From NCBI GenBank assembly GCA_958009085.1, contig OY253671.1, forward strand, positions 1,116,001-1,180,000: 64,000 bases of DNA, read 5' to 3'. The stretch is from Protoeuglena noctilucae (Eukaryota). The stretch's first letter is position 1. Each line of letters opens with the position of its first letter. Of this stretch, positions 25,201 to 64,000 are shown in pieces. The notes under the pieces were generated by a model that saw only the letters and a program-made list of their open reading frames with translations, had not been told where the DNA came from and made no database searches. The translations under genes and the position numbers were made by a program.

Positions 25201-25363
25201 CTAGCGAGCGGGTGTGCAAGGCGCTATCTTGCGTGAGCTATCGGCCTAGTGGGGAGCGAGCGAATCAGGATGAACTCTACTTGCGAGAAATTAGGTCCTA
25301 CGACAAAAGAAGAGTCTGGAAGCAGCCAGACGAAGCAAACAGGGTGGCCTGCACTAGTCCGTC

Positions 25364-27605
25364 TCAGTTCCCCAGCCTCATGGCCCGCAGCGACCGCGCC
25401 ACGTCGACGTAGACGACCGAGTGGCCGTCGCTGCTCATGGCCACGATGCCCTCGCCCAAGCGGCAGAGGCCGCGCCAGATCAGCGGCCCTTTCGGGGACC
25501 CCACCTCCCACAGCGCGACGTCCCCACCCTCAGTGACGCCCACGGCGCGACTCCCATCGTCAGACAGGTGGCAGCACCGAAGCGGGGACGTCCCATCGCT
25601 GCCCTCCGCACGCGTCCCTGCCTCGACGTCCGACGCCGCGCCCGTCCCTTTCACACGCACCTGGCCCCACATGCCGGGCGCCCGTGCCAGGTTCTGCCAC
25701 GCGTCCGTCGCCGGCCCCGCCACCGTCATCCTCCTCATCGCCGCGCCCGACCCCACGTCCGCGAGCACCATGGCCCCGTCGCGCTGGAGCACGAGGGCAA
25801 AGTCGCCCACCGACGACAGCGTGCACGCCTGGGCAGCCTCCCCGCCCTCCCCGACGTGCGCCAGGCGCCTCCCTGGCACCGCGCCGATCAAGTCCACGAG
25901 CCACGCGCCCCGGAGCCCCGTGACCACCGCAGAAGACCCGTCGCGAGACACGGCCACCGACGTCGCGAAGGGCGCGGCCGGCTGACCGGTTGCTGTGCCC
26001 GGGCATGCCATCTCGGTCAGGCGAGCGCCCCGGACCAGGTCCCATATCTCCAGAGTCCCGCTTGCGCGCGCCACGACTCCCAAGGTGCCGTCGCCAGACG
26101 TGTCACAGGCGGTGGCCACCGGCGCCTCGCCCCGCGCGACCAGCTCATGCCTCAGAGACATGGACGGCAGGTCCAGCACCGACACGGCGCCTGAGGACGT
26201 GCGCAGGAGCCCGACGCGGCCGTGCACGGCCATGCGGACCTCTGCAATGGACTCCGGATGCTGTGAGCTTGTGGACGCCAGGTGAGAGGCCACACGGACG
26301 GGGCCGTGGACGCGGCTGAGGCGCCACAGCGACACGCGGCCGCCCGCAGTGCCCGTCAGCACCCACCGACCGTCCCCACTGACGCACACGCACGTGATGC
26401 GCGGCGTCACCCACGCCATGACGTGCCAGAGGACCTGACGCAGGGCCACGCGCCAGCAGAGCGCGGCAGCCACGCACAGCGCCAGGGCCGCCCACCCGGG
26501 AAGGCCCCCGGCCCACCCCTGCGGCCTCGCCAGCCACGCACGAGCACCCGCACTGAAGCTCAGCAGCGCATCGCGCGGCCGGCCCGCCACCGCCATCGCC
26601 ACCTTGCCCAGCTTGTACAACAGAAACGCCACGCCCAGCGCCAACACCGACACGGCCAGCAGTGCCGGGGCCCGGGCGGCCCAGACTCCGAAGGACTGGG
26701 GCGGCCGGGCGTCGACGGGAGCGGCCTCCTGCGTCGCGACTGAGGGGTGGAGAAGCTCAGGAACTGGATGGAGTAACGGGGTCGGGCATCGCGCGTGCGG
26801 CAAACGCTGCGTGTCTTACCTCAAGAGAGCCGGCGATGCTGCTTAGCCGGTCCTTTAGTCGGTCCAGGGATTCGCGCAAGGCGGCCTCCTGGCCGCGTCT
26901 CCAGTCCAGCGTGATGCCGACGGCCCGCAGCTCGTTGTCGTGCAGGCGCCGGCTGAACACCCTCCCGAAGGGCAGCCCTCCGACCTTGCGGCTGCGCTTG
27001 ATCAGTCGCACGGCCAGGACCAGGCAGGGGCGAGCCTGGGCGACGAGGTGGTTCTGGAGCGCGGAGCCCCCCCAAACGCCCTCCTTCCGGACGTCCCTCC
27101 TGCTCTTCTTCTTCCCGTCTCCGCGCCCTCCCAGAATGCCCCGCCTGGCTGCTTCCTGCGCCTCGGCCGTCTGCTCCGTCAAGTGCTCCAGCCTTTTGCG
27201 AATGCGCTTGGCCACCCGGGCCATCTCCACCTCGATGCTGCCCTCTTTCACATCCGCCACAATGTCCTGCGCGCGAAGGGGAGAGAAGTTCGCTTTCTCG
27301 ACGCGCTTGGCGGGCGAGCGAGGCCGAGCTGTCTCTTGTGGTCTTACCCCGCACTTCGTGGCAAGTGCCACAACTTCGGTAGCTAGATACGACATTTTCG
27401 TCACAGAGACCACACGTAGGTGAACAAGACAGGCATCGGGAGCAGCGCAAAGGTGGGAAGCATGCACAGTCACACTGGGGGCCTGCTGTACGGCCGCCCA
27501 GGGCGCCTCGCAGCCCGGTCTGAACAGGAAATGCGAGTGAATCTCAAAGTAAGTCCGCAGTGCCCAAGGAAGCGCGGGTTTCCCTGGCAATGGGTTGTCT
27601 TTCAT
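25364..27605 (-). CDS. WD40-repeat protein with basic/helical N-terminus and two hydrophobic segments; 5' end uncertain
   Basis: WD repeats ITCVCVSGDGRWVLTGTAGGRVSLW, ACDTSGDGTLGVVARASGTLEIWD and CCHLSDDGSRAVGVTEGGDVALWE. Hydrophobic LLAVSVLALGVAFLLY and WAALALCVAAALCW precede them. Confidence 0.7.
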
Positions 27606-27739: not shown

Positions 27740-28973
27740 ATGACCGGGCCACCGGTAACGGGGCCGCCGAGCCCGGACGATACGCTCGTGGGCATGGCGC
27801 TCAAGGTCCTCTACGCCGGCAGTCCATTCGTGAAAGCATCGTACGCTGAGGAGGCCGCTCAGCTTTGGCTGTCTCGCAAGGCACGGGCCCTGATGCGAGC
27901 GGCGGCCCGCTTTCGTGCCTCCATCGTCAGTCACTGCGGCCTCATCGCGGGAGATTCGCCGCCAACCTGGAAGCCCGGGAGCTGCTGCCGCAGGTCACGC
28001 GCGTGGCACCACCTCCGGAGGCGAGGGAGGAGCCCCCACAGCGGCCGGCGAGGGACGACGCTGTGCAGATCGTCCATCCGGGTCGGGCGCCGAAACGAGG
28101 AAACGCAGGGACCCTCGCATCAAGGGTGGCGATAGTCCATGCGCTCGTGCATACCGAGGTGCGGCAGGGCCCCATGTGTGTCACCTGGGATGGGCGGTAC
28201 TCACGCCCTATGCGCTACTCCGCGTCTCTCCACCGCCTCAGTCCTGGGCCATCGACCTGTTCTACGATCTCATAGCGCGGTTCGCTGGGGACCCCCAATA
28301 CGGCGACCTCCCAGTGGAGTTTTACGACGTGATACGCGGCGCCCAGCAAGAGGCCAAGCACTTCTGCCTCCTGGCAAATCGCCTGGAGGAGATGGGCAGC
28401 CGGTACGGGGCGCTGCCGGCGCACGACGGCCTGTGGGAGACCGCGGAGATGACGGCCCACAATCTGCCTGCGCGGCTGGCTGTGGAGCACTGCGTGCACG
28501 AGGCCCGGGGTGTTGACGTGCTCCCCACCACCGCCGCCAAGTTCCAGGCGAGCGGGGACTCCGACACGTACCGGCTGCTGATGGAGGTGAGTCTCGGAAT
28601 GCGAGGGGCCATGCACGGGTCTTGATGACCGTGCCGTGCTGCAAGACACACAGATGGACGCACTGGGCCATCCGTGCAGGTGGTGTACCCTGAGGAGATC
28701 GAGCATTGCCGGGCGGGGGTCACGTGGCTGCGGCACCTGCACGCGCACGCGCATGCGCTGCCGGGGGACGCGGGGAGCGTCCCCGAGTGGGCGCGATGGG
28801 CCCGCCGGTTCTCTCGCGTTGAGTGCTGGTTCCAGTGGCTGGTCAAACGGCATCTCTACGGGGTGCTTCGGCCGCCATTTAACGTGCCGGCGAGGGAGGC
28901 GGCTGGCTTCGAGCCTTCATGGTACGAACCCCTGAGTGATCATGCGCTTGATCCTCAGCCCGACTTGCCATAG
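27740..28973 (+). CDS. DUF455 ferritin-like family protein (multi-exon)
   Basis: PQRPAR, VHALVHTESWAIDL, EAKHFCLL..RLEEMGSRYGALPAHDGLW, HEARGVDV, EEIEHCRAGVTW and LRPPFNVPAREAAGF. Confidence 0.9.
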
Positions 28974-42941: not shown

Positions 42942-45120
42942 ATGGAGTACGACCTGAGCTCGGTCGTGGCCAAGTTCCTCGACCCGCATCTGTCGCTCCC
43001 GATCGTGGGTTTCCACCAGGTGCGGCAGGAGCGCTCGCCTGGGCGGCCGGGGATGCCTGCAAAGCGCGGCGCGAGTCGAGCAACCCCGGGGGCCCCGCAG
43101 GAGCGCGGGCTGCTGAGCAAGGATGAGTCTCTGAAGCTCCAGAGCAGCATTTTGGACAAGACGAAGCTGGTGGATTACCATTCCGACGTCGTGAAGGCGA
43201 TGGGCGGGGGCGCGGAGAAGCTCAAGCAACTCGAGGCCCAGAGGTGGGTGGAGGCGCCGGTGGCCGCGGTCTTGCCCGCTGTCGTGCTCCGGGGCTTGTA
43301 GGGATCGCGGGGCCATCCGCTCGCGGGAGGATGGGGCCCGCCGGGGCTGGGGAGTGAGGCGGCTGCCGCCGCCTGGGTTCGCAGGAACGCCGTCATCGAG
43401 GAGTACAAGCAGCTGGAGGACTTCGCACGGCCGATGATCGAGCTGGTGAACAACAAGGACCTGGTGGGCAAGCTGCGGCGGGACAAGGCGTTTAACGTGC
43501 AGTTCCTCGAGGAGATGTTCGGGATCCAGGAGCAGCAGAACGCGGCCCTCTACCGCTTCGCGAAGCTCCTATACGAGACGGGGTCGTACGAGAGGGCATC
43601 GACGCTGGTGAGACCCCGCAGTGGCTCAGGGATCTCGCCGGTGGTGCCCGGGTGCGCTGGTGAAGGATCGAAGGCGGGCCGACCGCGGCCGCCGCCCGCC
43701 CGCCCGCGCAGATGGAGTCGTACGCGCTCTTGTCGCCGGACAACGCGGGGGTGCTGGCGTCGCACTGGGGCCGGTTCGCGGCGTCCATCCTGCAGGCGGG
43801 GGCCGACCAGCAGTGGCAGCACGCCCACACGGCCATGATGGCGCTGAAGGACGTCATCGACACGAACAAGCTCAACGTGTCGCCGATGAACCTCGTCCAT
43901 CAGCGCGCCTGGCTCATGCACTGGGGCCTCTTCATCTTCTTCAACCACCCCTCGGGTGCGCCTCGCTCCTTGGAACACCAAGCGCTTGTGCCCTTGAGTT
44001 GCCCAACAGCTCTCGCCGCCCCGTGCCCTGAACCGTCTCCTCGCTCCTTCTCGCAGGTCGCTCGTTACTCGTCGACCTCTTCATGCAGGATGCATACCTC
44101 AACGCCCTCCAGACCCTCGCCCCCCACCTCCTGCGCTACTTCGCCGTCTCTGTCCTCGCAAACAGGCGAGTCCACGTCATTGCTTAACATCTGCTTGCGC
44201 TTGCGGCCGCCCTCGCGCGCCCTGCGCCTCGCCACGCGCGCTGCGCCACCATGCGTCCACACGGCGTAGTCAATGCGAGCCCTGGCCCCCACTGCGTTGC
44301 AGGGACCGCCGGTCTGCGATGAAGGAGCTGATCCGCACGCTGAAGCAGGAGACGTACCAGTACCGCGACCCCATCACCGAGTTCGTGCTGTGCTTATACT
44401 CCGAGTACAACTTCGACCGTGCCCACGAGATGCTCGTGCGGTGCCAGGAGGTCATGGAGCGGGACTACTTCCTCTGCCACTGGCGCGACTCGTTCGTGCA
44501 GAACGCCCGGCAGGTCATCTTCGAGATGTACTGCCGCCTGCACTCGGCCATCGACATTCGGGTGCGTGGCTGCCCGCGCCATGACCTGCTGTGCTCTGCC
44601 CCGCCGCGCTCGCCCGTCCCCGACGGCGACATCGAAGTCGGACACCCCCGCAGTCTCTGGCGGACAAGCTGAGCATGGAGCACGATGATGCGGAGAAGTG
44701 GATCGTGGACCTGGTCTCCTCAGCCAACCTCAACGCCAAGATCGACTCGGCGGCGGGGACGGTCGTCATGGGCCCGCAGCACAAGTCGGCCGTGGACATG
44801 ATGATGGACAGCGCACGCAACCTGACGGTCAGGTGACACAGCAGGGCAGGGTGGCGTGCGCAGCGACGCTGTGCCTGCGGGCTCGTATGCCCGCTTGGAC
44901 CCAAGGCTGGGGGGTGATGACATCTTCCGCCGTTTCCGATTAATTATCTGTGACGACTACTTTTACACCAGACTTGCCTGACCCCAGCCGACCCTCTTGC
45001 TTGCACCACACGCGGCACGCAAACGTGCTGCAGCCCGACTCGGAATGTGCTTTTGTGCCTCGCAGAACCTACAATGTCGCGGACCAGATCCTCGCGTCGC
45101 TGGAGAGCAACGTTGTCTAA
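42942..45120 (+). CDS. EIF3E: Eukaryotic translation initiation factor 3 subunit E
   Basis: MEYDLSSVVAKFLDPHL, LYRFAKLLYETGSY, HQRAWLMHWGLFIFFNH, YLNALQTLAPHLLRY, QETYQYRDPITEFV and AEKWIVDLVSSANLNAKID. Last exon RTYNVADQ...NVV* ends at 45120. Confidence 0.97.
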
Positions 45121-45336: not shown

Positions 45337-48300
45337 CTACCGCCCCTTCTCCGTGCTGACCTGCATCAGCAGGCTGCGCAGGTCGAGCTTGACTTGCCCC
45401 TTGAGCAACTCAGCGAGGGCCTCCACCCCAGCATCGAACCGCTGGTACAGCTGCGACAGGGCCCGGCTTGACTCCACCATGAGGTCGATCGACTGCTGGA
45501 GCTGCACCAGGTTGGCCTGCGAGGGGAGCGGGGCACAAGGCGGTGCACTCGATGTGCGGGGACATGGTACTACTGTCTGTTGTAGACCCTTTAAGGGTCT
45601 GTACACGGTGTGTGATACAAACGGTGCACATGTTGCACCGTTCCGTCGCCCGCGGTGCCTCACCTGCACCTCCTGGTCTAGTGTCTCGGCCAAGGCGCCT
45701 TCTGCATCGGCCTGCTGCGCCTTCAGGACCTGGAGGTGGGCCAGGCGCCCTGCCATGGGCTCCAAGTTGCAGACGGAGGCCGCGAAAACCAGGGCGGCTT
45801 CCAGGAGGGTGTCCACGCGCGACATGATGGGTCGGGCGTCCTCCAGGAGCATCATGCGCGAGAGCAGGGCCGACAGCCACGCCTCGTGGGCCGCTGCGGG
45901 TGGGGAGGCGGTGGGAGTGGGCAAGGCAACAATGAGGGTGATGAAAAGGATTGGCCCGATCCGGGCTCTCCACAGATCCAGAGCAGTGCGGGCCTCACCA
46001 ATGATGCCCTGGAGGTCCTTGGCCGCTTCCACCTTGGCCAGCAGCTCGTACCACTGCGGGGCAGGGGACGGCGACAACAGCAGTCCTCGCATAGATGTCT
46101 GTGGGGTGAGAAGCACAGCCACCTCATGGATGCCTTACAGAAGCAGCAGCGGCAGTCCCCCCACGTACCTCGACCTCGATGACGTCGAACATCATGTACC
46201 CGAGGAGGCCCGAGACGAGTGCCGCCATGCGCGAGCGGATGAGGGTCGCCTGCTGCACCAGGGCCCCGTACCGACGCGTGAACTGAACCTCGGGGTCCGG
46301 GTCGCCGTCGTGGGCGCGGCGCGTCCTCGAGGACCGCAGAACGGCGTCGTTGGGCTTGAGGCCGCGCCAGGCCGCCCCCAGCGCCGCCTCGACCCGCTTG
46401 AGCTTCAGGAGCAGGGCCGACGCCCTCGCGTATTTGGCCATGCACTCGGGGGTGAGGACGGTCGACACGGGCGGCGAGACGCGGTACTGCAGGCGCACGC
46501 ACTCCCACCCGCTGGCGCCGTCGGCCGGCGCGAGGCTCACGCGCACGCACGACTGCACGAGCGCCTCGTCGGCCGACGCCGCCCCGGACGCCGACGCCGA
46601 CGCCTGCAGGGCGTAGTTGATGGCCCGCTGTAGCTGCATCTCCGAGATTTCCTTGGATGGCAGCGCCAGGTCCGGGCCCATGCCCTCCACGAGGTGCCCG
46701 GCGAAGTCGCTCTGCCCCAGCAGGAGGTAGCTCCGGACGCCCGCCAGGTGCCGCTCGAGTCGGAACTCCCCCAGCATCACGCGTTTCAGTCGCGCGTCCA
46801 GTCGCGACGCCACCTCCTCCACCAGCGACGCCATGGCTCGACCGGGGGCGCCTTCCTCCCCACCGTCCTGGGAGAGACGCGGGAGAGCGATGCATGAACA
46901 TCACGCTAACCTTCCCAAGCCCCACGCATGTCACGCCAGCCTCTCCAAGGCCCCTTCCTCGGCAGTGGCCATTCTTATTGCAGTTGCCTGTCGAAGCCCG
47001 CTCCCAGGCATGCCCCATGTGTCGGCAGCATCGCATTAATCCCTCACCTGCCGCTCCTCCCGTGTGACCAGCGCCTCCATGGCCTCCTGGAGGTCCCTGG
47101 CATCGTCGTCCCCGGCCCAGCCGTCGTCGCCGCAGCACGATCGCAGGAAGGTCACCGTCTTGCCCGCCCGGAGCACTGCCGCCGCCGTCCCGTCCGAAAC
47201 CAGCGGCGGGAGCATCTCGGGGACCAGGGCAAACCCGGACCGCCACAGGTCGAAGTCGCCGTCGTCGTCCCGGCCCTTCCGCCCCTCCCGCACAAAGAAC
47301 TCCCCGTGCGGGTCCTGCAGGGCGCCCCGGCAGCAAAAGGCCACCAGAGTCTCCCACATGGGACGTGCCACACGCCGCAGAGACTCCAGAACCAAGGCCC
47401 TTGCGGAGGGGTCGCCTTGCTTGCCCAGCGCCCCCAGGCGCTGCAGCAGGGCGCCGCCCTTGGACGTCGTCGCCAGGTCCGCCATCACCGCGAACAGTTT
47501 CATGCGCTGTGCCTGGTCGGACAGCCACACGGACAGCCGGCGCTGCAGGGGTGGACCGAGGGCGATGGTGGGCTCGTGGGGTATCGACCCGGCTGATGGG
47601 TCCACGCAAGAAAACTTCCCGATTCTTCGGACCAACTCGGCGCCTCGCCACATGCTACGCGCTACGTGCTGCGAGCACAGCAGCAGCTCACCAGCGTCAT
47701 GGCCGAGGGATGTCCTGCACCGTCCGCATTGGCGTCGCGTTCTGCGAGCGTGGCCTGCTCCTGGAGCACCGCGAGCATCCGGTAGTGCTCCGAGATTTCG
47801 TGCTGCAGCACGTCCTTGAGGGCACGCTGGGCCGACCCCGTGAGGCGAGCGTCTGAGAGGAAGTCCAGCACGCGCCGGAACAGCCAGCCCAGCTCGCCCA
47901 CGCTCTCCACGAGCGCCGCGGCGGGCGGAGAGACCCCCGGCGCGGGGACGCCCCGCAAGGCGTACCCCTCGCCCCCGGCACCAGCGGCGCGGCGCTGGCG
48001 GCAGACGAGCCGCCCGTCCACGCCCTGCCCCGCGAGGATGAGGTCGCGGACCAGCTGCCCCTCGATGCGCGCGAGGGCCGTCGACGCCTGGGCCTCGGCG
48101 ACCGCGTCGCGTGCTGCCCCCGCCACGTCGAGGGTGCGGGAGGGGCGGGGCGCCGCCAGCGCGCCTGCCTGGGCCCTGCGGGCGTGGACGCACCGGGTAC
48201 CGCGTGTTGATGCGCGATAGTCATATCGCACCGCTGGTGGGCGCCCGCTACGCCAACAGAGCTCAAGCCTCAGTCTGTCTCACCTGTTGTTGTGGACGTC

Positions 48301-50188: not shown

Positions 50189-53100
50189 ATGGCCGTGCGC
50201 GCAGTCCCCTACCACGCTATCAAGGGTCTTCTCGCGAATGAGGGCCGCTTCGCGTGCGGCAAATGCGGGGGTATGCAGCGGGTCGGAAGCGAAGGTTTGC
50301 AGCCCTTCGAGACGGAGGTGAGCGCCGCCTCTCGCGCTGGCCTCTTTGTTCGATGTGTGCGTAATGCGTTTCTAGACAACACACGAACGCGCTGCTATCG
50401 AAGACGCCCAGCTCGCGCGGCCACGCACGCAGGTGGACGCTCTGAGGAAGCAGCTGTTCACCGTGCTGGAGTACTGGTACGCGCGCTACGGCGTCGAGTT
50501 CAACAGCTTCCTAAACGAGGGCAACACGAACCTTTTGAAGAACCTCGGTTGGGACACGGACAGTGAGGGCCTGCATGGGATGCGACTCGTGACCAGCCCT
50601 GTTCGATTTGTCAAGACCCGCTGGCCCCTCCCGCGCTCCCAGGCCTTCTGGTGGGCGACATCCCCAACACTCCGGAGAACCGCGAGCGCATTCGGCTGCG
50701 GACGGTGCTCCATTCGCGGAGGTGAGGCACGCGTCTGCAGTGATGGGGCGTGCGAGGGTCGCGCATGTAGTTTTGCTTAGTCTCTCCCCAGCGCACGTGA
50801 CGTGACCCTGCTTGCCCGTCGCCTGCAGCGGAGGGCCGCACGGCCGCATCGGCGCGCCCGCTGCTGCAGCTGCATCCCAGGCGGGGGGCGCGGGCCCCGC
50901 TGGAGCCCCAGCCCCGGCGCCCGGCGGTGACCCCGGCGCTGCCGCCCCCGAGATCCCCGCCCCCCCGGACATGGGACAGTTCGAGGGGGACGAGGTGGAG
51001 GAGGTCGGGGAGGGCGAGCTCTACACGACCTACGGTGAGCGGAGGTTGCCTAACCGTCTCTGCAGGACTGGGTGGGATCCGCACCCCGCGCATATATTCG
51101 TGTGGCGATCTGCGACGCCGCCCGCGCGCTCCCCGAGCTGCAGTGCCCCAGAAGGTGACGGTCGGCAAGCCGCACCCGGACGCGGTGGTGGAGTCATCGT
51201 CCCTGGCCTCGGTTGTCCCGCCCGACGCCACAAAGCAGCACGAGCTGCTCATCAAGAAGTGCGTCGTCACGGGGAGCCTCAGCGCCCTGCAGCTCGAGAG
51301 CATCATCTACTCCCTCCAGCGCCACGAGCTGTTCCTCCCCGCCATCCAAGTCCACGTGAGTTCCGTCAGTGCCACCTGCAGCGCCAGGGCCGACCCCACG
51401 CTCACCTGCCCTGCTCAGGGCCTGTGGAGGCCGCGCTTGTGTGTTCTGAGGGCAGCATGGGGTCGCTGCTATCCTGCAAGTGACAACTTAGGGTCAGGCG
51501 TGGGACCTTGGGACACCCGGCCCCCACGCGCAGGACATCACTGCGCCTCCCGTGCTTGGGGAGCATCGGGCGGGTTTCTTCATTGGGGACGGCGCCGGGG
51601 TCGGCAAGGGCCGCACGATCGCGGGGATCATCTACGAAAACTACAAGCGCGGCCGCAAGAAGCACGTGTGGGTGTCGGTGTCAACGGACCTGGTGGTGGA
51701 CGCAGGTGTGACGCGGGGGCAGGCGTGGGGGTGTTGGGGCAAACGTGCGTGGGTCCCACGTGGCTTTCCTTGTTATCGATTCACACTCTGACTGGCGCCC
51801 TGCCCTCCCACCCGCAGAGCGCGACCTGAGGGACGTGGGTGCGACCCCGCTCATCCACCACCACCGCCTGATCCCCTTGCACAAGCAGCCCTACGGAGCC
51901 ATCCAGCCCTCCGAGGGCGTCCTCTTCTTAACCTACAGCTCCCTCACCTCGGGCAACGCCCGCCGGGAGACTCGGCTGCAGCAGATCGTGACGTGGTGCG
52001 GGGGTCCGTTATTTGAGGGCACCCTGGTGTTTGACGAGTGCCACAAGGCCAAGAACCTGTACCCGGAGAAGAGCGCCAAGCCCACCAAGGTCGGCCTGAA
52101 CGTCCTGATGCTCCAGAGGGCCCTGCCCCGGGCCCGCGTGGTCTACTGTTCTGCCACGGGCGCCACCGCCCCCCGCAACATGGGCTACATGGAGCGGCTG
52201 GGCCTGTGGGGCCCCGGGACGTCCATCCCCACCTTCGAGGACTTCCTGGGCACGCGGCAGGAGAAGGAGAGGGAGCAGCGCGACCCCAACGACCCCCGGC
52301 GCATGTATGGGCAGACGCCCGAGCGCGTGCCGTCGGTGGCGGGCAAGGGCGTTGGGGCCCTGGAGCTACTGGCCATGGACATGAAGGCCCGGGGCATGTA
52401 CCTGTGCCGCACGCTGGCCTACCAGGGCGCCGAGTTCTCCACGGTGGAAGTGCCGGTGGCCGGGCAGTATATGGAGATGTACAGCCGGGCGGCCGACCTC
52501 TGGGCCGACATCATCGACGTCTTCGAGAACGGCATTCGGGCAATCACCGACTTCGAGGTGCGGAACGCGATCGACGACGGCAACGGTGGTAACGGTGGTA
52601 ACGGCAACGGTGGCAACGGCAGCGCTGGTCCCAGCAGCGGTGGGGGCCGCGGTGGGGCACGGCGGGGGCGTGGCCGGGGTCGCGGGCGCGGGGCGCGCAA
52701 TCGCGACGAGAACCCGAACGGCATGGGCGAGGACGGCTTGGGAATGGACCCAGAGTTTGACGATGAGGAGGAGGCGGTGGAGGTGGCGGAGGGGCGGCCG
52801 GCGACTACCAGCAGCGGGCAGGCCTGGCGCATGATCTGGGCGACGCACCAGCGGTTCTTCCGCGCGCTGTGCATGTCTGCCAAGGTGCCGCGCTTACTGG
52901 AGCTGGCGCGGGAGGCGCTGGGGGCGGGGCACGCAGTGGTCGTTGGGCTGCAGTCGACGGGGGAGGCGAGGACCAACGACGTGGTTGCCAAGAAGGGAGA
53001 CGAGCTGGGCGATTTCGTGTCGGATGAGAGCGGGGCGGGTGGCGGCTGCTTCTCTGACGCTGCGATGTGCCTGCTGAGCTGCGACGCGCATGTCATGTCT

Positions 53101-56100
53101 CTCGCAAGCTGCGGGCACTGCTCTCTGTCTTGCCACGGCTCGCTGGGGACGCGAGAGCGCCCGCGCTGTCCTCCACGCACCCCTCGTGCGTCTTACTTTC
53201 ACCGAGCGCTTCTGTCTGCAGGGCCCCGGGAGCTCTTGCTGAACCTGATCGACAAGTACTTCCCCGTCTTCCCGAGCCCCTACGAGGAGGTCGCGGAGGA
53301 TGACGAGGAGGTCGAGCAGGAGGGCGCCCCTGCCGGCGACCGTGCGGGGCGTGCGGCCCGGGCCCGGGTGGGGCAGGCGGTGCGCGTGGAGGCGGAGACC
53401 GGCAGCGACTCCGAGGGGGGTGCCGGCGGGCGCGGCGCGGGGACCCAGGGCTCCGACTTCGAGCCAGAGGACGAGAGCGAGAGCGACATGACGGGTGGCG
53501 GTGCGTGGGGCTGGGCGGAGCGCCTTGGACCCTCGTGGCGCCTGTGCTGTGCCCCATGTTAACCACCCCACGCGGCGTTGGGGTCGATGCTTGATGCGTT
53601 GCAATCGTGCATTGCCCCGCCGTGTTGTATCGCAGGCTGGGTGCAGCTGCGCCAGCCGCGCCCTCGGGAGGTCAAGGCGAAGTTCGCCCGCCTGCCGCCC
53701 CACATCCTGGAGGAGATGGAGCGGCGTCATGACGAGTGGCTGGAGACCAAGAGGTTCTTCTTGCAGCGCGTCCAGGACCTGCAGCTGCCCTTCAACCCCC
53801 TGGACGAGATCATCGACGGCCTGGGCGGGCCCAACGCGGTCGCGGAGATGACGGGGCGCAAGGTGGGCTGCAAGCTCGTGCTTGGATTACGAACTGCTTG
53901 TGCGTGTCGGCATTACTAAAGCAGTGTTATTGTGTTATTACAGTGTCTCACGTCTCTGCTCCTTGCCTTTCCAGGGCCGTCTGATCAGGCAAGAGAACGG
54001 GGGAGTGCGCTTTGAGGCAAGGAACGCGTCTGGGCTGTCGGCAGTGACGTCGATGGACGCCATCAACATCAAGGAGCGGGACATGTTCCAGAAGGGCGAG
54101 GTGAGCGGCAGTTGGGGTGACAAGCGGGACGTGGTGAGCGGGGTTGGGGTGACGCTAGCGGGACAAGGTGAGCGGTGACTGGGCTGGCGCTTACAGAGCA
54201 GCAGTGGATGTGCTGCGTTTGGCAGTGAGGATTGGAGTTTTTGTGGACCGTGGCAGGCCTGTGACCCGGTTGGGGCTGTGGTCGTGTCACGGACGGACAC
54301 GGAGCCGCCCCTTCTCTTTCGCCTCACGCAGAAGCTGGTGGCCATCATTTCCGAGGCGGCGTCGGCGGGGATCTCGCTGCACGCCCACCGCAAGGCGGGC
54401 AACACGAGGCGGCGCGTGCACATCACCCTCGAGCTGCCCTGGTCGGCCGACAAGGCCGTGCAGCAGTTCGGGCGCTCGCACCGCGCCAACCAGGTGCAGG
54501 CGCCCGTGTACAAGCTCCTCTGCTCCAACATCGGCGGCGAGACGCGGTTCGTGGCGGCGGTGGCGGCGCGGCTGGAGTCCCTGGGGGCGCTCACGCAGGG
54601 CGACCGCAAGGCGGGTCCCATCCTGTCAGAGATCAACGTGCAGAACAAGTACGGCCGGCAGGCGCTGAGCAACCTCGTGAGCATCCTGCTGGGGGAGATC
54701 CCGGCCCGGGTGCTGCCCCGCGAGTGCATGCCCGAGAACGGAGGCATGTCGATGGCGGAGTGGGCCAACGAGGCCCGGTGGAGCCTCTGCTCCGTCAGGT
54801 GAGCCTCGCGCGGCGGATGAGATTGACTGCGCTGTTGGGCTTGGGTCTGGAAGGATGACACAGCGGTGGCTTGGTACACGCTGGGCTGTTGTTGCTCTTA
54901 ACCCAACGCCTGGCCTCGCAGCATGCTCACTGCGGCCACTGTCGCTCCCACAATGCCACCCCTGACCTGCTGCTACTGTTCTCCAGGCGCTTTAAGTACT
55001 CTGCTCCTCATGACACAGCACCTTCCCTGTCCCCCCAGGCACTTCAAGTACTCTGCCCCGCACGGCATGGAGGACCGCCAGCACTTGCGCCGGGAGATGG
55101 CGCCCCTCTCCTCCCGCGGCAACCCCATGATCGAGGACAAGTCACGCGTGTCGATCAGCAAAACCCTGAAGTCGCACGTCCCGCGCTTCCTCAACCGCCT
55201 CCTGGGGCTCAGGCCCGACGTCCAGGCGAGCAATGGGGTGCTGTGGGGTTGCATGTGGTTGCATGTGGTTACCTGCTCACAGCTGCCCGATTGCATCGGT
55301 AGATTCGCCCAGCGCCCTCCCTCCGCATCTCCCTTCGCCGCCCCAGCAACGTTCGAGCTGCCAATGAACACCCCCATCGCTCCCCGCTCCCTCAGGCCAC
55401 CCTGTTCGACTACTTCATCGCCTTGCTGGACTACGAGATCTCCAAGGCCAAGAAGGAAGGCACCTACGACGAGGGCATCATGGCACTGCTGGGGACCGAC
55501 GTGTTTCTGACAGCTGAGCCCCGCGTGGCCTACCGAGACGCGTCGTCGGGCGCCACCGCGCTGCTCTATCGCGTGATGGTCGACCGGGGGACGCCGTTCG
55601 AACTGGCGTGCCGCATCCGGTGAGCCATCGGTGATGATGATGATGGCACGGCGCATCGCTGGGACCTCGCAAGCTTGTTGACCTTGTGCATGGAGCTCTT
55701 GCATTCACCTCGACCTCCTGCAATGCACCCGGCGCGTCTGTGTAATTCTGTTGGCTGCGAACCCCGCACCATCTCTGTCGGCGCTGAGCCAAGTGCCCTA
55801 CCGAGCACCCTGCGCTCACCTTCCCCCGTCCCCCTCGCCTGTCGCAGAGACCAGGCCGTGGAGCGGGAGATGAGGGACCGGGAGGTGGACGAGGAGGAGG
55901 ACGACGAGGACCCCAACCGACCCCCAATGACGAGCTTCTATCGCACCAAGAAGAAGATCGTCGGGGGCCAGCACCTGGTCCTGCTGGGGTGCTTCCGCCG
56001 CAACTCCGCCACCCACGGCCTCTACGACGGTTTCTTCATCACACGCCCCGTCACGGGCACGCAGCCCAAGGCCTCGCGCGCCGCGGACATCCTGGAAATG

Positions 56101-58460
56101 TACGAGCCAGTCACGGACGCGGTCGCCAAGCGTATCTGGGACCACGCCTACACGGAGGCGGGGATGCCGCCGGCGGAGTGGGACGCCCTGCAGGCGCAGC
56201 TGCGGTGAGTGGGGTGGGGACGTGGGCAAAGCTGCGGTGCGTGGGGCGCCGTGTTGGGTGCAGCTGCGCTGAGTGGGGTGGGAGCGTGGGCAATGCTGCG
56301 GTGAATTTGGATGTCCTTGCAAGCAAAGCTGTGGTACATGAGCGTGACTGAGAGGGTTTCGTGTTTGCAGGGCCAGCGAGGGCGTGGGGGCTGAGCGGGA
56401 TGAGCCACAAGAGACGAAGGACGCGACTCCTGGGCAGGCGAAACGCAAGGCGAATGCGGACGGGCCAGAGGGCAGGGGCGCGAAGCGGGCCAAGGGCGCG
56501 GGGCCCAGCGGCGGTGCGGGGCCCAGCGGGGCGGCTGGCAATGCCGGCGGATACGTGTCGATCAGCGACGATGACGAGGAGATGAGCGAAGAGGAAGCGG
56601 AGATGAAGGCGAGGGAGGGCGGGGCACGCGCAAACACGTGATAGCATGTTGATAGCACGCCTGGCGACACGCTGGTAGCACCCGTGACCCTAACACCACG
56701 CGTTGCGTGTTGTAGGTGTGCCGCTCACTCGCTGCTTTTCTCCTGCAGAGAGTGGCTGCGCGGGCCACGACCGGCGACCTCATGCCCATCCCAGTCACGA
56801 AGTACACCCGCAATCGCATGCGCGAGTACTACCTCCTCGGCGGCGTCGTCATCCCCATCTGGGACCTGATCAACAACTGCCTCAAGCTGGGAGACACGCT
56901 GGTGGGGGGCGGGGCCCGCGGCTGATGATGTGTGGCATGGCTGAGCCGGGCGTCCGGGCTTGTCAGCACTTGCTGCCGATGCGTTGATTTATAATACCTT
57001 TGCTGAACACGTATCACCCCATTTGCGATGCAAGTAGAACAGCTCTCGTCGCGCCCCGCAGGCCTCGCGCCAGCTCCGGGTGGTGCGCGCCATCACGACC
57101 AAGGGCAAGCAGCAGAAGCTGATCGGCATCCAGATCCCCGAGAAGGGGTTAGAGCAGCTCCTGGAGGCCGGGCGCCGGCGGGCGGCAGAGCACGCGCAGG
57201 AGCTGTGAGTGCCGGGGCTGCCTAGCGCCCGCCACAGGGCGCCCGCACGCGCGAGGCTGAGCGAGCGGTCACAGGTTCGATCCCTCGCTACATCGCAGGG
57301 CGGTGCGTCGCGTGGCGGACATGCCCTCCGCGGAGGACCTGGAGGAGGCAGAGGCAGACGCCGTGGCTGCCCAGCAGGTGGAGGCAGAGGATGCGGCGAG
57401 GGTGGCGAGGGCGGCGGAGAGGGCGAGGGCTGCGGCAGATCTGGCAGACGACGACTCAGACGACTCAGACGACTCGGACAGCACCCAGGCTGGCGCGGGG
57501 CCGGCGGTGGTGGCGTCGCCGGACGGGGGCAAGCAGCGGACGCTCAACGGCTGGCTGCGGCGCGCCGGCAAGGCGGTCAAGAAGCCCTCGGAGGGCACGC
57601 CGGGGCCGCAGCCGGGCAGCGGGGCGGGAGGGTCCGGGGCGTCGGGCCAGCAGCCGAAGCGCAACGCCAAGAAATCAGGCGAGTGCAGGGAGTGCTGTTG
57701 GCATGCACTTGGTGTAGGTGCATCAGCAACTCATGCCATGCGCTGCGACCCAGTGCCCTCCCCAGCCGACCCCTGCCCGAGAGGTGTGTTGATGGTTGTC
57801 TGCGCTCGGCGTGCAGTCGGCAAGTCTCGGAAGGCGATTCTATCCGACGAGGACGATCTGTCGGAGGGAGACGAAACGTCAGAGGAGATCGAGGACGAGG
57901 TGATCGTGGAGAGCTCGAGCGAAGAAGAGGAGGTGGAGGAGCAGGAGAGCGACGGCGACGGCGACAGCGCGGGCAGCGGATCTGAGCCCGAGGAGGCGCC
58001 CAAGGCGACGAGCAGGGCATCGAGGGGGGCGGCGCGGGGGAGGGGGGCGCGCGGCCGCGGTGGGCGGGGCGGCGAGGACAGCGGGGGGAGGAGCGCGGGG
58101 CGCGGGCGGCGGGGCCGGGCCGCGGAGTCGGTACCGGAGGGCGTGCTCGCGCCCAGGGCGAACGGGCGCCCTCGGTCCGCGGCTCCGACGGGTGCCAAGC
58201 CGCCTCCGTGGGCCAGCAATGACGAGAGGAGCGAGAAGAGCGAGGCCGGCACGCGCGGCACGTCGCGGACGGAGTCGAGCCGCGCGAGCAGCGCCCGCGC
58301 GCAGCGTTCGGAGGCTGCTACGGTCGCCCCCAGCAAGCGGGTGTCGCGCCGCGCTGCGTCGGCGTCGGCGTCGGTGGAGGAGAAGAGCTTCACCCGGGCA
58401 TCCAAGGGGCGCCAGGCCCAGCCCAGCGCAACCATCATCTCCGTCAGCGACAGCGACTGA
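50189..58460 (+). CDS. Strawberry notch family SF2 helicase-like protein (SBNO/FGT1-like); extra 5' exons possible from about 49490
   Basis: [125 protein letters not shown] and [13 protein letters not shown]. Confidence 0.96.
52579..52700 (+). repeat. Coding low-complexity Gly/Asn repeat followed by an RG/RGG-rich tract
   Basis: (GGTAAC/GGCAAC)-type iterations encode GNGGNGGNGNGGNG, followed by [18 protein letters not shown], inside the SBNO exon. Confidence 0.8.
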
Positions 58461-58879
58461 TGGGGACTACTGCATGGCTCATTGCTTGGTTTCTGCATGA
58501 TGTAGCGCAACGAATCGCATGCCACATATGAGCAGCGCTTTGAACGAGCACGTCGAGCAGTGGAAATTTGCTCTGGCGATTGGATGAGAGTGGCGGATGG
58601 TCGTTTGGAAGGATGGCTTTTCTCGGTGGCTTTGGCACTTGGTCAATGCCCTGGTGCCCCTTACAGTGGCTTCTGGATCAGGCCGGTCGCTGACGACGAC
58701 AGTTCCACACCGCAATGCCCGCTTTATGACTGCCACGCGTCGATCTCCATCGCTCTCCGGCGAGCACGCACGGTTTCCAAATCCACCATCGGCCTCATTC
58801 GGCCTGGCGGGACGGCTGAGCTGCAGCGTCGTGCCCCCTCCCGTCTTTGCACCGTAAACTAGAATAAGAAGGCGATACC

Positions 58880-61800
58880 ATGGGCGCCGGGGCAAGCAAG
58901 GCGAGAACGAGCCGCCGCTGGCCCATCCCATGCAAGCAGGGAGATGGACGCCGCGTTGCGAATGGAAGGCGCCATCGGTTGCGCTGGCCACATGTCGAGA
59001 TAAACTTGCTTGCATGTGACACACAAACAAACTTGCTTTCCTCGCAGGATGGCGGGTGCGTGAGCCGTCTGCATGTGAAGGCGTCGGTGGCTGATTTCCT
59101 CGCACGAGGCGCCCTGCATTGGCATTGCATGAACGCCCTGCATTGGCATGCGGCGCTGGTCTCCTCGCACGCGCGTCTCCGCCCCGGTCACCGAGTCCGG
59201 GTTATCCTCTCCCTCGCAACGCTCGACGCAGGGACGACAAGGTCGGGAAGGCGGAGAAAAAGATTCGCGAGAGCAACAAGTCCATGACCAAAGACGAAAT
59301 CTACGTCCAGGCACGCCTTTGCGCGGGCCGCATCGATCGCCAGGTAAGGGGGGGCGCGGGAGGAGCGTCAGCTGGATGGATGTGCTGTAGAGTGGGGCCG
59401 AGGCAGGAGCCTCACCTGGATGGCCAGCACTGCTGCAGGTGCGCTTCGACGTGACCGAGCTCGCCAGGCGCGACACGGTCCTCCTCTACGTGCCCTCCGT
59501 CAAGGACACCAAGGGAGGCACCTCAGGGTCCCTGTCGCTCACCGCTCTGCGCGTAATCTTCGCCGACACCAAGGGCAAGTCGAGCCTGCACATCGGCTGG
59601 GGCTGCGTGATGAGCCTCGAGCTCCAGGGCAAGGTCCTGAGCATGCTGGCCCAGGAAAAGGACAACAAGTCTCGATTCGAGTTCAAGTTCGAGTTGCCCA
59701 TGGCCAGCGACGTGGAGCGGGCCAAGGATGCGGTGCTGCTTTACCAGTGCTACAAGCGCACGGACCACTACCGGTAAGTGAGCCCACTAGGTTGCCGCAA
59801 CGCTGCCCTAGTGGCCAGGGCTGCAATGCACGTTCCCGACCTGCCTGCCGCGAGCAAGGATGGCTGCACTTGTCGCAGGACCCTGCGCCTTCGGCAGAAG
59901 GACGTCTTCCAGGGCGGCCAGCCCCGGCTGCTGCTGGGAGAGGGACATGTGGAAGAGTTCCGCTCTCCGGTCTACAACTTGGCGGGCAAAGGATCCACGC
60001 CCTCACCCGGCAAGATGTTCTTGACGGACGTCCGCGTGTTATGGCGCGCCGATCAGAACCACGAGTTCAACATATCGATTCCGATCACCAAGGCGAGTGG
60101 GGACTCGCCGAGCGAGCGCAAGAGAGTCACATTATGTGAGCCGACATGCGTGCCGGACAGGCTACCCTCCGCTGCTTCTCCCCAGATCGAGGGCGTGTCG
60201 ACGCGCACGACGGACTCGTCGGGCCTGGCGCTGGTGGTCAACACGGGCGCGGACGCGAGTAACCTCGTGCTTGGCTTCACGGCGGGGCGCAACGGCGGCG
60301 AAGAGCACCTGACCCGGGAGCTCTTTGCCTCGGTGCGCCAAAGGTGGAGGGCTAACGTCACACAGCCCCGCTTCGGCACCGAGGCGTATTTCGAGTGCGC
60401 CAAGGCGATCGGCGGCACGCTCCCCCAGTCGGACGAGGCGTTTCTGGCGGCCCTGGTGGCGGCGAGGAACGGCGTGGGGCTGCAGCTGCAGGCGAGCCTG
60501 GCCGCCCCAGGCGCAGGGACGTCCGGCGGCGCGTCGGGGAGCCAGGCGGCAGGGACCGCAGGCGAGGGCTCGGCAGAGGTCACCGCGACTGTGACGGCGG
60601 CAAAGGACATGGCGGCAGCTGCGGCCGAGGCGACAAAGGGGGAGGGGTCTGGCGCGGCGGCGGTGGCGGAGGCGGCAGCGGCGGCCAAGGACAACGCCAC
60701 GACGGTGTTTGCAGGCGAGTGGCGGGGCAGCGCGCGTGCATCGAGTGCGCAGGCGACAGAATGCACGGTCCCTTGGCCAAGAGTGTTCCTGCCCGCCGTC
60801 TGCTGCTGGACGGGTGGCTTTGTTGCAGGCGGAGAGACCGGGTGTGCTTGGGTGTCCTGCCCCCGCAGCAGCGACGGGGGACCCGCTGCTGACTGCGGCG
60901 CTGGGGACGATGCAGGGCCTCATCCAGGCGGGGTGCCTGGACCGCATCGTGAGCAGCGTGGGCAAGTGCCAGGAGCTGATGCAGGTGGCGGCGTGCATCG
61001 GCAAGGTCAAGGCGACCCTGGCCAACGTCCCCATCGTCGGCATGCTCGGCCCCGTGTGGGAGATCGCGGGTGGCATATTGGACGCCTGCGGCAAGTGCAT
61101 CGCGAACGCCCAGAACTGCTACAAGCTGGCCCGCCTGGTCCTGGTGGTCAGCACGTCGCTGTCTAAGGTGGCGCCCAAGAGACTCCAGGACTCGAAGCTG
61201 GCCGTGGAGGACCTCAAGGAGGCACTGCAGGCGGCGCTGGATCAAGTGCAGGCGAGGAAGGGGACCTGTGGGGGCTTGGCTAGCTACTAGCGGGCTTGCT
61301 ACTAGTGGGCCCTGGGGCGTGCACGTCTTGTGACCACGTCGTGCAAGTGCTTATGGGCTGTGCAATGGCGGGCACTCGACCCTTGCTGCGCCGCAGAGCT
61401 ACCAGGGCAAGGGCATGTTCACCAAGTACGTGTTTGCGAGCCAGCACAAGGACGCGTTCGAGGCTTGCGACGCGGACCTCCGGGCCAAGGCGAGCGGGGG
61501 GCAGTGGGTCGCATCACGTCTAGCATCGTGCCGTGCCTGTTTCGCGTTGGTCCATCGGCGCTGGCGTCACGTCAACGCGGTCCCGACCTAGCCCTGCGCG
61601 CAGTGGCAGGGCTTGGCGAATGACATCGTGCTGCAGGGCGCGCCGAGCGACGCCAGGTACGAGGAGGACGCGAGGCTGAGGGAGGCGATGGTGAAGGCGG
61701 CAGGCACGGACCAGGCGGGCAAGGCCTGGGAGGTGCTGAAGGACGACCCCGCGGCGCAGGACAGGCTGCTCGAGGCGCTGGGCGTCAGCCACCAGGCGAG

Positions 61801-63892
61801 AGAGGCGTGCATGTTTGGAGAGCCTCTCACATACCACACGGCACAGCGCACATCATGCAAGTCACAGAGTTGATCTAACAGGTTCCCTCGTGCGTGCGTC
61901 GTGGGTCGTGACTGCGCGTCGTGACTGCCGCTGCTGCGCGCAGATGGTGGTCCAGGCCGTGAAGGCCCACATGGAGCGTGCGCTGAACAAGAACAAGTCC
62001 TCGATGCGCCGGGTCATCCAGGAGACGATCCACGACAGCCTGGAGGCCTTCCAGGCGGTGCTGGGGCAGCTGACGACCACGCAGCTGACGACTGCGGACG
62101 GCCCGAAGGACATCAAGCACACGACCGAGGCGCGGGTGGATGAGTGGGCCGCCCCGCTGATCGAGAGCGTTACGGACAACTTCGCGGCCGACCGGCTCCT
62201 GGGATCCGGCGGCTTCGCGAAGGTCTATCGGGCGACGGTCGCGGGGTTCCGGGGCAAGCGGCGCGACGTGGCGGTGAAGCGCTTCTTCATCCAAGACGAG
62301 AGCGCCGTCGAGGAGCAGGTGCGGTTGCGTGAAAAGAGTGACACTCGCGGCTCATGCAAGAGGGTCTGGGTGCGCATGTGGTGGTTGCATGCGGTGCTTG
62401 CAAGGCAGTGCAGTGTGAAGAAGGGGTGTCCGGATGCGATAGCCACATGTGAGGCCCCGTACTTGATACCCAGTACTGGCTGCGCCCTCCCTGCTCCGCA
62501 GATTTTAAACGAGGCGGAGATCCTCGGGACCCTGAAGCACGCGGGCATCGTGCGGCTGCTGGCCCTGTGCTGGAAGCCGGCCTGTTTGGTGTACGGTGAG
62601 CATGTGGCGGGCGAGCGTGGATAGCAGGAAGACAACATATTGATGGAGACTATCGTTGACCAATGACCCCAAGCGAAGGCCACATTGCACAGCGCCTCGT
62701 CTCCGCCGCAGAGCTGTGCGAGGGCGGCACGGTGGCGGACAGGCTGGAGGGGCGGCAGGGGGGCCTGGGGTGGCAGGCGCGCGTGCGTGTGCTGCGAGAG
62801 ACGGCCGTGGCGCTGCAGTTCATGCACTCGGCGCGCGGAGAGGGCGCTTTCTCCAAGGGCGTCTATCACAGGGACATCAAGCCCGCCAACCTGCTCCTTT
62901 CGGTGCCGGGAGACGACGCCAGCGTCAAGCTGGCCGACTTTGGCGTGGCGAGGGTCGTGGATGAGGACAGGGAGGCAGGCGCCAGTGTTACTACCCGTTT
63001 GATGGGAACAAGCGCGTACATGGTGAGCGGTGGTGTCAATTGACAAAGCGGGTGCGCAAGTTTGGGCGCCGTGTGCTGTGGGCAGCCGCCGTAAGGGCTT
63101 GCAACATGCAACTTTATCACATAACTCGCCGCGCAGGACCCCGTCTACGTGCGCACACGCAAGTACGGCCCGCACTGCGACGTGTACTCGCTCGGGGTGG
63201 TGATGGTGCAGCTGGCGACGGGGTGCTCGGGCCCCCGGGCGCTGGTGGTGGCCGAGGATCCCTCCGGGGCGACCCCAGACGCTAAGGCCGGCGACTGGAT
63301 GGCGGCGGTGTTCACGGAGGTGCTGCAGATGGGCCTGCGGTGCATGCGCGACCGCCCCGACGACCGCCCCTCGCTGCTGGAGGTGATTGAGTCGCTGCGG
63401 GCGGCGGAGAAGGCCGGGGCCGAGGGCGACGGGACGCTGCTGGCGACAACGGCGGAGATCCGGAGGCGCCACGAGGAGCACGAGCGGCTGAAGCAGGCGC
63501 TGCTGGCGGAGCAGAGCAAGGTGCGGGGCAGGTCTAGAGGGCATGCAGGGTGCGGGTGGTGCGAGGCGAAGCATGGCGGGTGCGGGCAGAGGGCGGACAG
63601 AGGGTGGGGCGGTGCTACGCAAAGCATGGGCGGAGCAGCGGGGTTTGTTTGCATCGCGAACCTCCGCCCATCTGCGCATCCCTCGCCCCGCTGTTGACCC
63701 CCACACATGCCCAAACAAGCCATCCCATTTGATTGCGCGTCACGCCATGCCGCCTCGCGTACGCAGTTGGAGGCGCAGCTGCAGGCGGCGCAAGAGGCGG
63801 AGAAACTGGACGAGGAGCGTCGGCTTATGGAGGAGAAACTGGCAGAGATGAGGAGGCAGCTGGAGGAGAGGACCCGGGGTGCCGGGGCCAAG
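58880..63892 (+). CDS. Multidomain protein: N-myristoylation motif + BBS5-like double PH + MLKL/HeLo-like helical domain + IRAK/Pelle/RLK-type kinase + coiled coil (probably continues beyond window)
   Basis: Exons checked by hand for phase: 58880-58900, 59048-59055, 59232-59343, 59439-59773, 59879-60092, 60186-60714, 60869-61251, 61398-61489, 61604-61795, 61944-62318, 62502-62595, 62712-63023, 63137-63520, 63767-63890. No stop codon falls between the domains. Kinase motifs: LGSGGFAKVY, VAVK, HRDIKPAN, DFG, GTSAYMDP and DVYSLG. Confidence 0.85.
59330..60385 (+). other. BBS5-like double PH domain within the kinase gene
   Basis: DRQVRFD, VKDTKG, LRVIF, IGWGCV, SRFEFKF, YRTLRLR, PRLLLGE, VYNL, GKMFLTDVRVLWRA..NHEFNISIP, GLALVV, VLGF and QPRFG occur in the same order as the remembered BBS5 motifs (DRDVRFD, EDTKG, TRFEFIF, YRDFKLR, FNVSIP, GLALVI, VLGF, PIFG). 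Confidence 0.88.
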
Positions 63893-64000
63893 TGAGGGGC
63901 CCTGGACAGTCCAAGGGTTTGTTTGTGATCATGCGATGGTGTGCAATGGGCTCTCGGGTCCTGTCGATGTAACTCAGTTCCGCTGTGTTCGTTGCGTGTT

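Follow-up and report, generated by a model that had tools for sequence, protein, structure and literature searches.

One transcribed gene of a marine alga joins a BBS5-like module, a helical region of possible MLKL type and a probable RLK/IRAK-type kinase

Introduction

Vertebrate MLKL acts at phosphoinositide-bearing membranes, and the pairing of an MLKL_N domain with a kinase domain is an architecture already known from animals and seed plants. Plant MLKLs consist of a HeLo domain, a brace, a kinase-like domain and a C-terminal extension; the bundle is buried until activation, the proteins form tetramers, and the Arabidopsis members are described as pseudokinases in the available text of the report on them (10.1101/681015). 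The accessible part of one survey (PMC3495828) tabulates BBS5 among PH domains that interact with membranes or lipids, and expression of a conserved BBS5 expressed sequence tag (EST) cluster of Emiliania huxleyi was recorded solely from haploid cells bearing flagella (PMC2784329, available portion). According to the available text of another source, the molecular components of phytoplankton programmed cell death are unknown (PMC8455989). Here we analysed a stretch of DNA from the marine alga Protoeuglena noctilucae (64,000 nucleotides of contig OY253671.1, hereafter the window). One locus in it, at 58880-63895 on the + strand, encodes in a single mRNA an N-myristoylation-type start, a divergent BBS5-like module, a helical region that may be related to MLKL_N and a probable RLK/IRAK-type kinase. 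Its newness lies in the N-terminal fusion and in the lineage.

A single gene of fourteen exons

The locus lies in eukaryotic DNA of 62-72% G+C. From the three forward frames and the splice signals we rebuilt a gene whose 14 exons are in phase across all their joins, giving an unbroken open reading frame (ORF) of 3180 nucleotides (nt) and 1059 codons with the terminal TGA (63893-63895) as its sole stop. A preliminary description of the locus, made from the sequence alone, had likewise reported fourteen in-phase exons without an internal stop and a start at 58880, and the peptides quoted there are present in the rebuilt ORF. Exon 1 (58880-58900) was placed by splice signals, the ORF and an RNA joint, and exon 2 (59048-59055) is an 8-nt micro-exon with RNA support. 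The ORF and RNA together place exons 3 (59232-59343), 4 (59439-59773), 5 (59879-60092), 6 (60186-60714), 7 (60869-61251), 8 (61397-61489), 9 (61604-61795), 10 (61944-62318), 11 (62502-62595), 12 (62712-63022), 13 (63137-63520) and 14 (63767-63895, including the TGA), all on the + strand. The acceptor is AG in all 13 introns, and the donors are GT in seven and GC, in the form AG/GCGAG, in six. The micro-exon reads GATGGCGG between a flanking AG and GT, and is necessary because the phase between exons 1 and 3 would otherwise be lost.

RNA came from four runs (X1-X4) of one marine metatranscriptome study, X1 and X2 being from one sample, and the contigs were aligned to positions 57800-64000 of the window. 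In X1, all 13 introns were removed; splice joints were found for 7/13 introns in X2, 5/13 in X3 and 0/13 in X4. Introns 1 and 2 were seen in X1 as a single joint from 58901 to 59231 with ATGGCG between, six letters that match the prediction from the 8-nt exon 2. The six GC-AG introns (donors at 58901, 60093, 60715, 61252, 61490 and 61796) were all confirmed by RNA. One X1 contig (record 3; 1870 nt, 0 mismatches) runs from exon 5, spliced, through exons 6-11 to exon 12, and thus spans the BBS5-like part, the helical region and the kinase. Record 2 covers the 5' untranslated region to exon 5, and record 4 runs from exon 12 to past the end of the window. With 13/13 introns spliced in X1, the 1870-nt bridging contig and the unbroken ORF, the locus is one gene with one mRNA, not two genes; this supplies the RNA-based confirmation of a single transcript that the preliminary description had called for.

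The 5' untranslated region extends at least over 58745-58879, as record 2 begins at 58745. The ATG at 58880 is the earliest in that contig, and an in-frame TAA lies upstream of it at 58865-58867, which together fix the start codon. A poly(A) tail closes the mRNA of the neighbouring upstream gene (+ strand) at 58556, 324 nt short of this ATG, so the two loci are distinct.

That a BBS5 gene and a kinase gene were misjoined here, or that the assembly is chimaeric, strikes us as extremely improbable. The joint of intron 6, between the BBS5-like exon 6 and the helical exon 7, does rest on one contig of one run (X1, depth 12.7); X4 contains unspliced pieces across introns 6 and 11 (60390-60727, 60762-60933 and 62477-62835), the first two of them over intron 6; and a contig covering two genes has no force as proof of one transcript. 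The exon 6/7 joint is nevertheless an exact GC-AG splice that keeps the frame, the BBS5-like part ends without a stop (frame 1 is open to 61163), and the depths of the three X1 contigs are alike (8, 12.7 and 19.1). No poly(A) end or cluster of starts was found within the locus in the RNA contigs. Most X4 pieces are just 95-99% alike, and the unspliced ones may stem from pre-mRNA, from DNA contamination or from a different strain.

Retention of intron 6 would carry frame 1 on to a stop at 61164, yielding a BBS5-like protein with an out-of-frame tail. X4 also reaches a depth of 177 in the bin 60491-60697, from contigs of 31-48 nt on a GCG-rich stretch, which looks like low-complexity cross-matching and not expression. 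X1 and X3 contigs link 60323 back to 57932 (60303-60323 / 57932-57949), with 17 foreign letters between and long loose ends; this joint probably belongs to another transcript with a common short GC-rich stretch. A tblastn search of the 64-kb window found no second copy of the gene model.

An N-myristoylation motif and a divergent BBS5-like module

The consensus for N-myristoylation is MGxxxS. Exon 1 (58880-58900) encodes Met-Gly-Ala-Gly-Ala-Ser-Lys, ending at a GC donor, and M-G-A-G-A-S-K has both the Met-Gly start and a small residue at position 6. The MGAGASK start of the preliminary description thus stands, since it is in the rebuilt ORF and the start is set by the RNA contig and the upstream stop. 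A Lys-rich basic stretch follows in exon 3 (59232-59343; 8 Lys/Arg in the first 30 residues), ahead of the BBS5-like module.

Pfam was scanned with 12 single-exon translations, each searched separately. Exon 4 (59439-59773), the first PH-like half, matched BBL5 at E 9.7e-9 and 35.1 bits (cut-off 23.8; profile 17-131). Exon 5 (59879-60092, with a GC donor), the first part of the second half, matched it at E 2.5e-8 and 34 bits (profile 134-197), also above the curated cut-off. The first part of exon 6 (60186-60404), where the match ends, was weaker (E 0.018, 14.5 bits, profile 202-267), with the order kept. Three successive exons therefore match BBL5 at successive profile positions, and a translation running straight from exon 5 over intron 5 into exon 6 scored 46 bits against it in 2 stretches. 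Against all PDB chains, both matches of exon 4 were BBS5 (6vbu_5 at 7e-4 and 6xtb_E at 6e-3), as were both matches of exons 5-6 (BBS5 of BBSome structures, 3.1e-7 and 6.1e-6). The exon scans gave no match to BBL5 profile positions 268-334, the last fifth of its 334, where an Ala-rich linker stands instead.

These matches support the presence of a divergent double PH module, probably a BBS5 paralogue. We call it BBS5-like and not BBS5 because of the low scores and the unmatched profile 268-334. It resembles BBS5 in having two PH-like halves in the same order, with BBL5 as the best Pfam family; it differs in its low exon scores (35, 34 and 14.5 bits), in the unmatched end of the profile and in being part of a 1059-residue fusion, whereas BBS5 is a stand-alone protein of ~340 residues (341 in the PDB BBS5 chains). 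The "full" BBS5-like module of the preliminary description was therefore right in kind, with two exons above the cut-off and BBS5 as the only PDB matches, but overstated in extent, as the low-scoring matches cover profile 17-267 of 334.

The module might instead be an integrated decoy or sensor, such that a pathogen factor aimed at the real BBS5 or at phosphoinositide binders would trip the kinase and the helical effector. What speaks for this is the architecture alone, in which a divergent version of a protein conserved in the host is joined to domains for signalling and to putative effector domains, and a divergence that suits a paralogue better than a working BBSome subunit. Membrane targeting is the simpler reading, and we regard a decoy as very unlikely.

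Intron 5 (60093-60185) is 93 nt long and open in frame, and is spliced out in X1 and X2; its retention would add 31 residues to the second PH-like half and leave the ORF intact. The last part of exon 6 (60483-60714, with a GC donor at 60715) is an Ala/Gly/Thr-rich low-complexity linker. Alanine makes up 31 of the 81 residues 330-410, in keeping with the Ala-rich linker described earlier, and the Pfam scan gave no family match for it.

A probable RLK/IRAK-type kinase with intact motifs

The protein kinase domain is spread over exons 10-13 (62190-62318, 62502-62595, 62712-63022 and 63137-63397) and was recognised by Pfam, PDB and motifs. Kinase families, including Pkinase (8.3e-15) and PK_Tyr_Ser-Thr, matched the four exons in order. 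The catalytic motifs are intact: the Gly-loop G716-S-G-G-F-A (716-721), K741, H838-R-D840 and D861-F-G; the Glu of the usual Pro-Glu motif is Val. The kinase thus appears, as far as motifs tell, to be catalytically active.

In PDB searches, the top matches of exon 12 were the sugarcane kinase ScRIPK and a lectin receptor-like kinase (RLK), and IRAK4 aligned along the full length of the exon; the scores of CaMK, NEK2 and PknB were about equal to those of these RLK and IRAK4 matches. For exon 13, the C-lobe, all five matches were plant RLKs or receptor-like cytoplasmic kinases (RLCKs). The loop His-Arg-Asp-Ile-Lys..Asn and the activation-segment motif Gly-Thr-x-x-Tyr-x-Asp-Pro are typical of RLK/Pelle/IRAK kinases. 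These data point to a kinase of RLK/Pelle/IRAK type whose nearest solved relatives are plant RLKs and RLCKs and IRAK4, and agree with the RLK/IRAK-type assignment of the preliminary description. The protein differs from that group in lacking a receptor ectodomain, a transmembrane helix and a death domain.

Downstream of the kinase lies a charged, helical C-terminal tail (63437-63520 and 63767-63892), recognised by its composition and by sub-threshold Pfam matches. Its last 74 residues include 15 Glu, 11 Leu, 11 Ala and 10 Arg, and the sub-threshold matches are to coiled-coil families (PUMA_CC, 0.0056; SOGA CC, 0.13). The tail is probably a coiled coil, as had been proposed.

The helical region and its possible relation to MLKL_N

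Between the linker and the kinase lie ~290 residues of helical region. The first part of exon 7 (60869-61044) is predicted to form two helices (AF2, H5-19 and H22-50, low confidence). Its last part (61045-61251, ending at a GC donor) would hold candidate helices 1-3 of an MLKL_N-type bundle, and exon 8 (61397-61489, GC donor) a candidate fourth helix, placed by a half-profile match and a motif likeness. Exon 9 (61604-61795, GC donor), between bundle and kinase, may be a "brace"-like helical connector, which by position continues in the first part of exon 10 (61944-62189). The connector comprises ~135 residues (566-700). As single exons, exons 7, 8 and 9 had no Pfam match, and no family matched the connector in exon 9 or in exon 10 before its residue 83.

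Relatives of exon 7 were sought by word-index, exhaustive phmmer and two-sequence profile searches. Among ~1.8 billion representative proteins only two were found: P0001, which is the window's own exon as an ORF, and P0002, from ENA contigs of which the longest is 147,551 nt. The sequence of P0002 has 47% identity to exon 7 and is interrupted by an intron at the equivalent point, showing that the helical domain also occurs in a second gene or an orthologue. The exhaustive phmmer search gave 4 matches, of which these two are real; the others are repeat proteins and were dropped as spurious. A word-index search of longer proteins with exons 7 and 4 gave no relative, the two-sequence profile found nothing beyond P0001 and P0002, and metagenome and viral scans gave none. 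These null results say little about the spread of the architecture, because the collections seem to be without spliced proteins of this lineage.

When P0002 was compared with 24,736 Pfam families at E<=10, its best family was MLKL_N (PF22215; E 0.018), with residues 38-106 on profile positions 1-73 of 142. By the P0001/P0002 alignment these residues correspond to 466-534 of the window protein. The matched stretch opens with the helix predicted to be the first of the bundle and stops with the exon, halfway through the profile, so the rest of the profile would fall in exons 8-9. Chance coincidence is unlikely, since the family had been named before the scan. In the ESM Atlas, the first match of P0001 (0.95, 199/256 features) was a Mucoromycota cluster with MLKL_N in 10% of its members; for P0002 the score to that cluster was 0.93, and two plant clusters with MLKL_N/MCAfunc scored 0.87 and 0.85. 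The fungal HeLo and HeLo-like (HELL) proteins come into view here as well: the clusters placed closest by the language model consist of small helical proteins from fungi, some of them carrying MLKL_N, and a Basidiomycota NLR N-terminus matched the Atlas model of P0002 at a TM score of 0.64. These fungal likenesses fall under the Atlas bar for naming a family and serve as leads only, and the window protein differs from the fungal systems in having no amyloid or NLR partner.

Several results weigh against an MLKL-type reading. The MLKL_N match of P0002 lies under the Pfam cut-off (15 bits vs 27), and none of three queries from the window (exon 7, P0001 and a 74-residue sub-stretch) matched MLKL_N at E<=10; neither did exons 8 and 9 in Pfam. 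Just 3/10 of the best family-bearing Atlas matches of P0002 agree, a level at which the Atlas deems the family probably wrong. No MLKL turned up when PDB sequences were searched with exons 7 and 8, with P0002 or with the two-sequence profile. Finally, the kinase motifs are intact, whereas animal and Arabidopsis MLKLs are pseudokinases with a catalytically dead kinase domain. Weighing the family match against these points, we consider it fairly likely that the helical region is of MLKL_N/HeLo type. The MLKL/HeLo bundle of the preliminary description is thus weakly supported, by P0002 and the Atlas clusters, and not by matches of the window sequence itself.

The fold models cover the single exon 7 and are of low confidence: the predicted local distance difference test (pLDDT) was 64.5 for AF2 with exon 7 alone and 54.8 with a two-row alignment. 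A Foldseek search of the PDB with the exon 7 model gave nothing at E<=0.001 (best 0.47), and in two further structural searches with the exon 7 models MLKL was not among the 50 matches listed in each. On these models, exon 7 could form by itself an up-and-down bundle of five helices that has no relation to MLKL, is of CheA P1/HPt-like topology and serves in protein binding or as a spacer. The pLDDT of 54.8 and a sequence identity of 5-10% speak against this, exon 7 has no histidine, which excludes a phosphotransfer role, and the half-match of P0002 to MLKL_N stops right at the exon boundary, suggesting that the domain runs into exon 8. We therefore consider an unrelated bundle rather improbable.

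A possible membrane-directed MLKL-type kinase and its alternatives

We tentatively favour the view, to which we give slightly less than an even chance, that this one nuclear gene of a marine alga encodes a membrane-directed MLKL-type kinase with a putative function in cell death or immunity. Such a polypeptide would be tethered to a membrane carrying phosphoinositides by its myristate, its basic patch and its BBS5-like PH domains. An MLKL_N-type four-helix bundle would be built from exon 8 and the final 70 residues of exon 7, and exons 9-10 would make up a brace which, acting with the kinase, would keep that bundle closed, as happens in the MLKLs of animals and plants. The bundle would be freed once the protein is phosphorylated, perhaps by its own kinase domain, and oligomerises via the C-terminal coiled coil; it would then act on the membrane at which the N-terminal module already keeps it. 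Ions might leak or the cell might die, or the effect might be a defence signal that is not lethal.

Plant MLKLs (AtMLKL1-3 and Pm13 of a wheat relative) share with the proposed layout of this protein the order of bundle, multi-helix brace, RLK/TKL-type kinase fold and C-terminal extension, as well as the proposed logic of an auto-inhibited bundle (10.1101/681015, available text). The window protein differs from them in its sub-threshold bundle match, its intact kinase motifs (the Arabidopsis proteins being pseudokinases) and its charged coiled-coil C-terminus, where that of plants is Ser-rich. It also has ~465 extra N-terminal residues before the bundle, comprising the myristoylation motif, the BBS5-like module, the Ala-rich linker and two helices, and it comes from an organism outside the seed plants. 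In vertebrate MLKL, too, a four-helix bundle, here a candidate one, is followed by a brace and then by a kinase fold. The vertebrate bundle, however, stands at the extreme N-terminus and binds lipids itself, whereas targeting of the window protein would be the work of its lipid anchor and of a BBS5-like PH module separate from the bundle; vertebrate MLKL needs RIPK3, whereas the window kinase may be self-sufficient; and no solved MLKL matched the window sequence in the PDB searches.

A doubtful but serious alternative is that the protein is a kinase that signals at a membrane or flagellum and takes no part in execution, its helices and coiled coil serving regulation and dimerisation only. The BBS5-like module and the myristate would then bring an active kinase of RLK/IRAK type to a membrane rich in phosphoinositides, perhaps at the base of the flagellum. 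The BBS5-like and kinase calls, on which this alternative is built, are both solid, whereas the MLKL_N match is sub-threshold. All catalytic motifs are kept, unlike in MLKL pseudokinases, and plant MLKLs can themselves confer immunity without cell death, both according to the available text of 10.1101/681015; a BBS5 homologue of Emiliania huxleyi, for its part, was expressed in the haploid, flagellated cells alone (PMC2784329, available portion). Yet MLKL_N is the best Pfam family of the sole relative P0002, at the predicted place, and the ESM Atlas neighbours point towards MLKL_N as well. The BBS5-like module is also so divergent that a role in the BBSome or cilium is not implied.

The membrane-directed MLKL-type kinase can also be taken further, to a self-contained necroptosis-like executioner of a bloom-forming alga. 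One polypeptide would then do the jobs that in vertebrates are divided between RIPK3 (the active kinase) and MLKL (the membrane-breaking bundle), pre-positioned on the target membrane by its lipid anchor and by a BBS5-like module co-opted to read phosphoinositides, fired by viral infection or stress, and helping to end blooms. We consider this extension unlikely.

Among the papers listed by the literature searches there was none on a BBS5-kinase fusion or on an MLKL-like protein in haptophytes or other microalgae, nor on a BBS5-like module and myristoylation signal before an MLKL_N-kinase pair with an active-looking kinase in an algal host. The earlier statement that no protein of such architecture had been described can therefore be kept for the N-terminal fusion, but not for MLKL_N plus kinase. 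As a transcribed gene joining a putative MLKL-type bundle, an active-looking immune-type kinase and a membrane-targeting module, the locus is a testable candidate for a phytoplankton cell-death or defence switch. If the MLKL-type reading is true, MLKL_N-plus-kinase proteins reach beyond animals, seed plants and fungi, and a double PH module of BBS5 type has been put to use away from the BBSome. Should the bundle reading fail, what is left is a kinase tethered to a membrane, unusual but otherwise ordinary.

GC-AG introns and neighbouring genes

GC-AG introns make up 46% (6/13) of the introns of the gene. Available text of the sources gives 0.3-2% in plants and metazoans and 14-17% in pelagophytes (bioRxiv 10.1101/2024.10.30.620910), and 56% in Emiliania huxleyi (PMC4028052). 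The share in this gene is far over the plant and metazoan figures and near that of Emiliania huxleyi; taken by itself, it would point to a haptophyte as the likely source. In the RPL19e gene of the same window (12863-13861, + strand), the donors are GT in 3/3 introns.

The neighbouring genes, recognised from ORF pieces, are housekeeping eukaryotic ones. On the - strand they include RRN3 (2-2346), a DEAD_2/Helicase_C_2 helicase (6272-9188), a Utp12/WD40 protein (18492-26815) and a gamma-tubulin complex protein (46127-48279). The + strand carries RPL19e, DUF455 (27894-28622) and eIF3 subunit e (43302-43835); an alpha/beta hydrolase (~16200, + strand) was recognised as well. The upstream neighbour, whose mRNA ends at 58556, is a Strawberry-notch-like helicase (50800-58556, + strand) with Pfam matches to AAA_34, Helicase_C_4 and SBNO.

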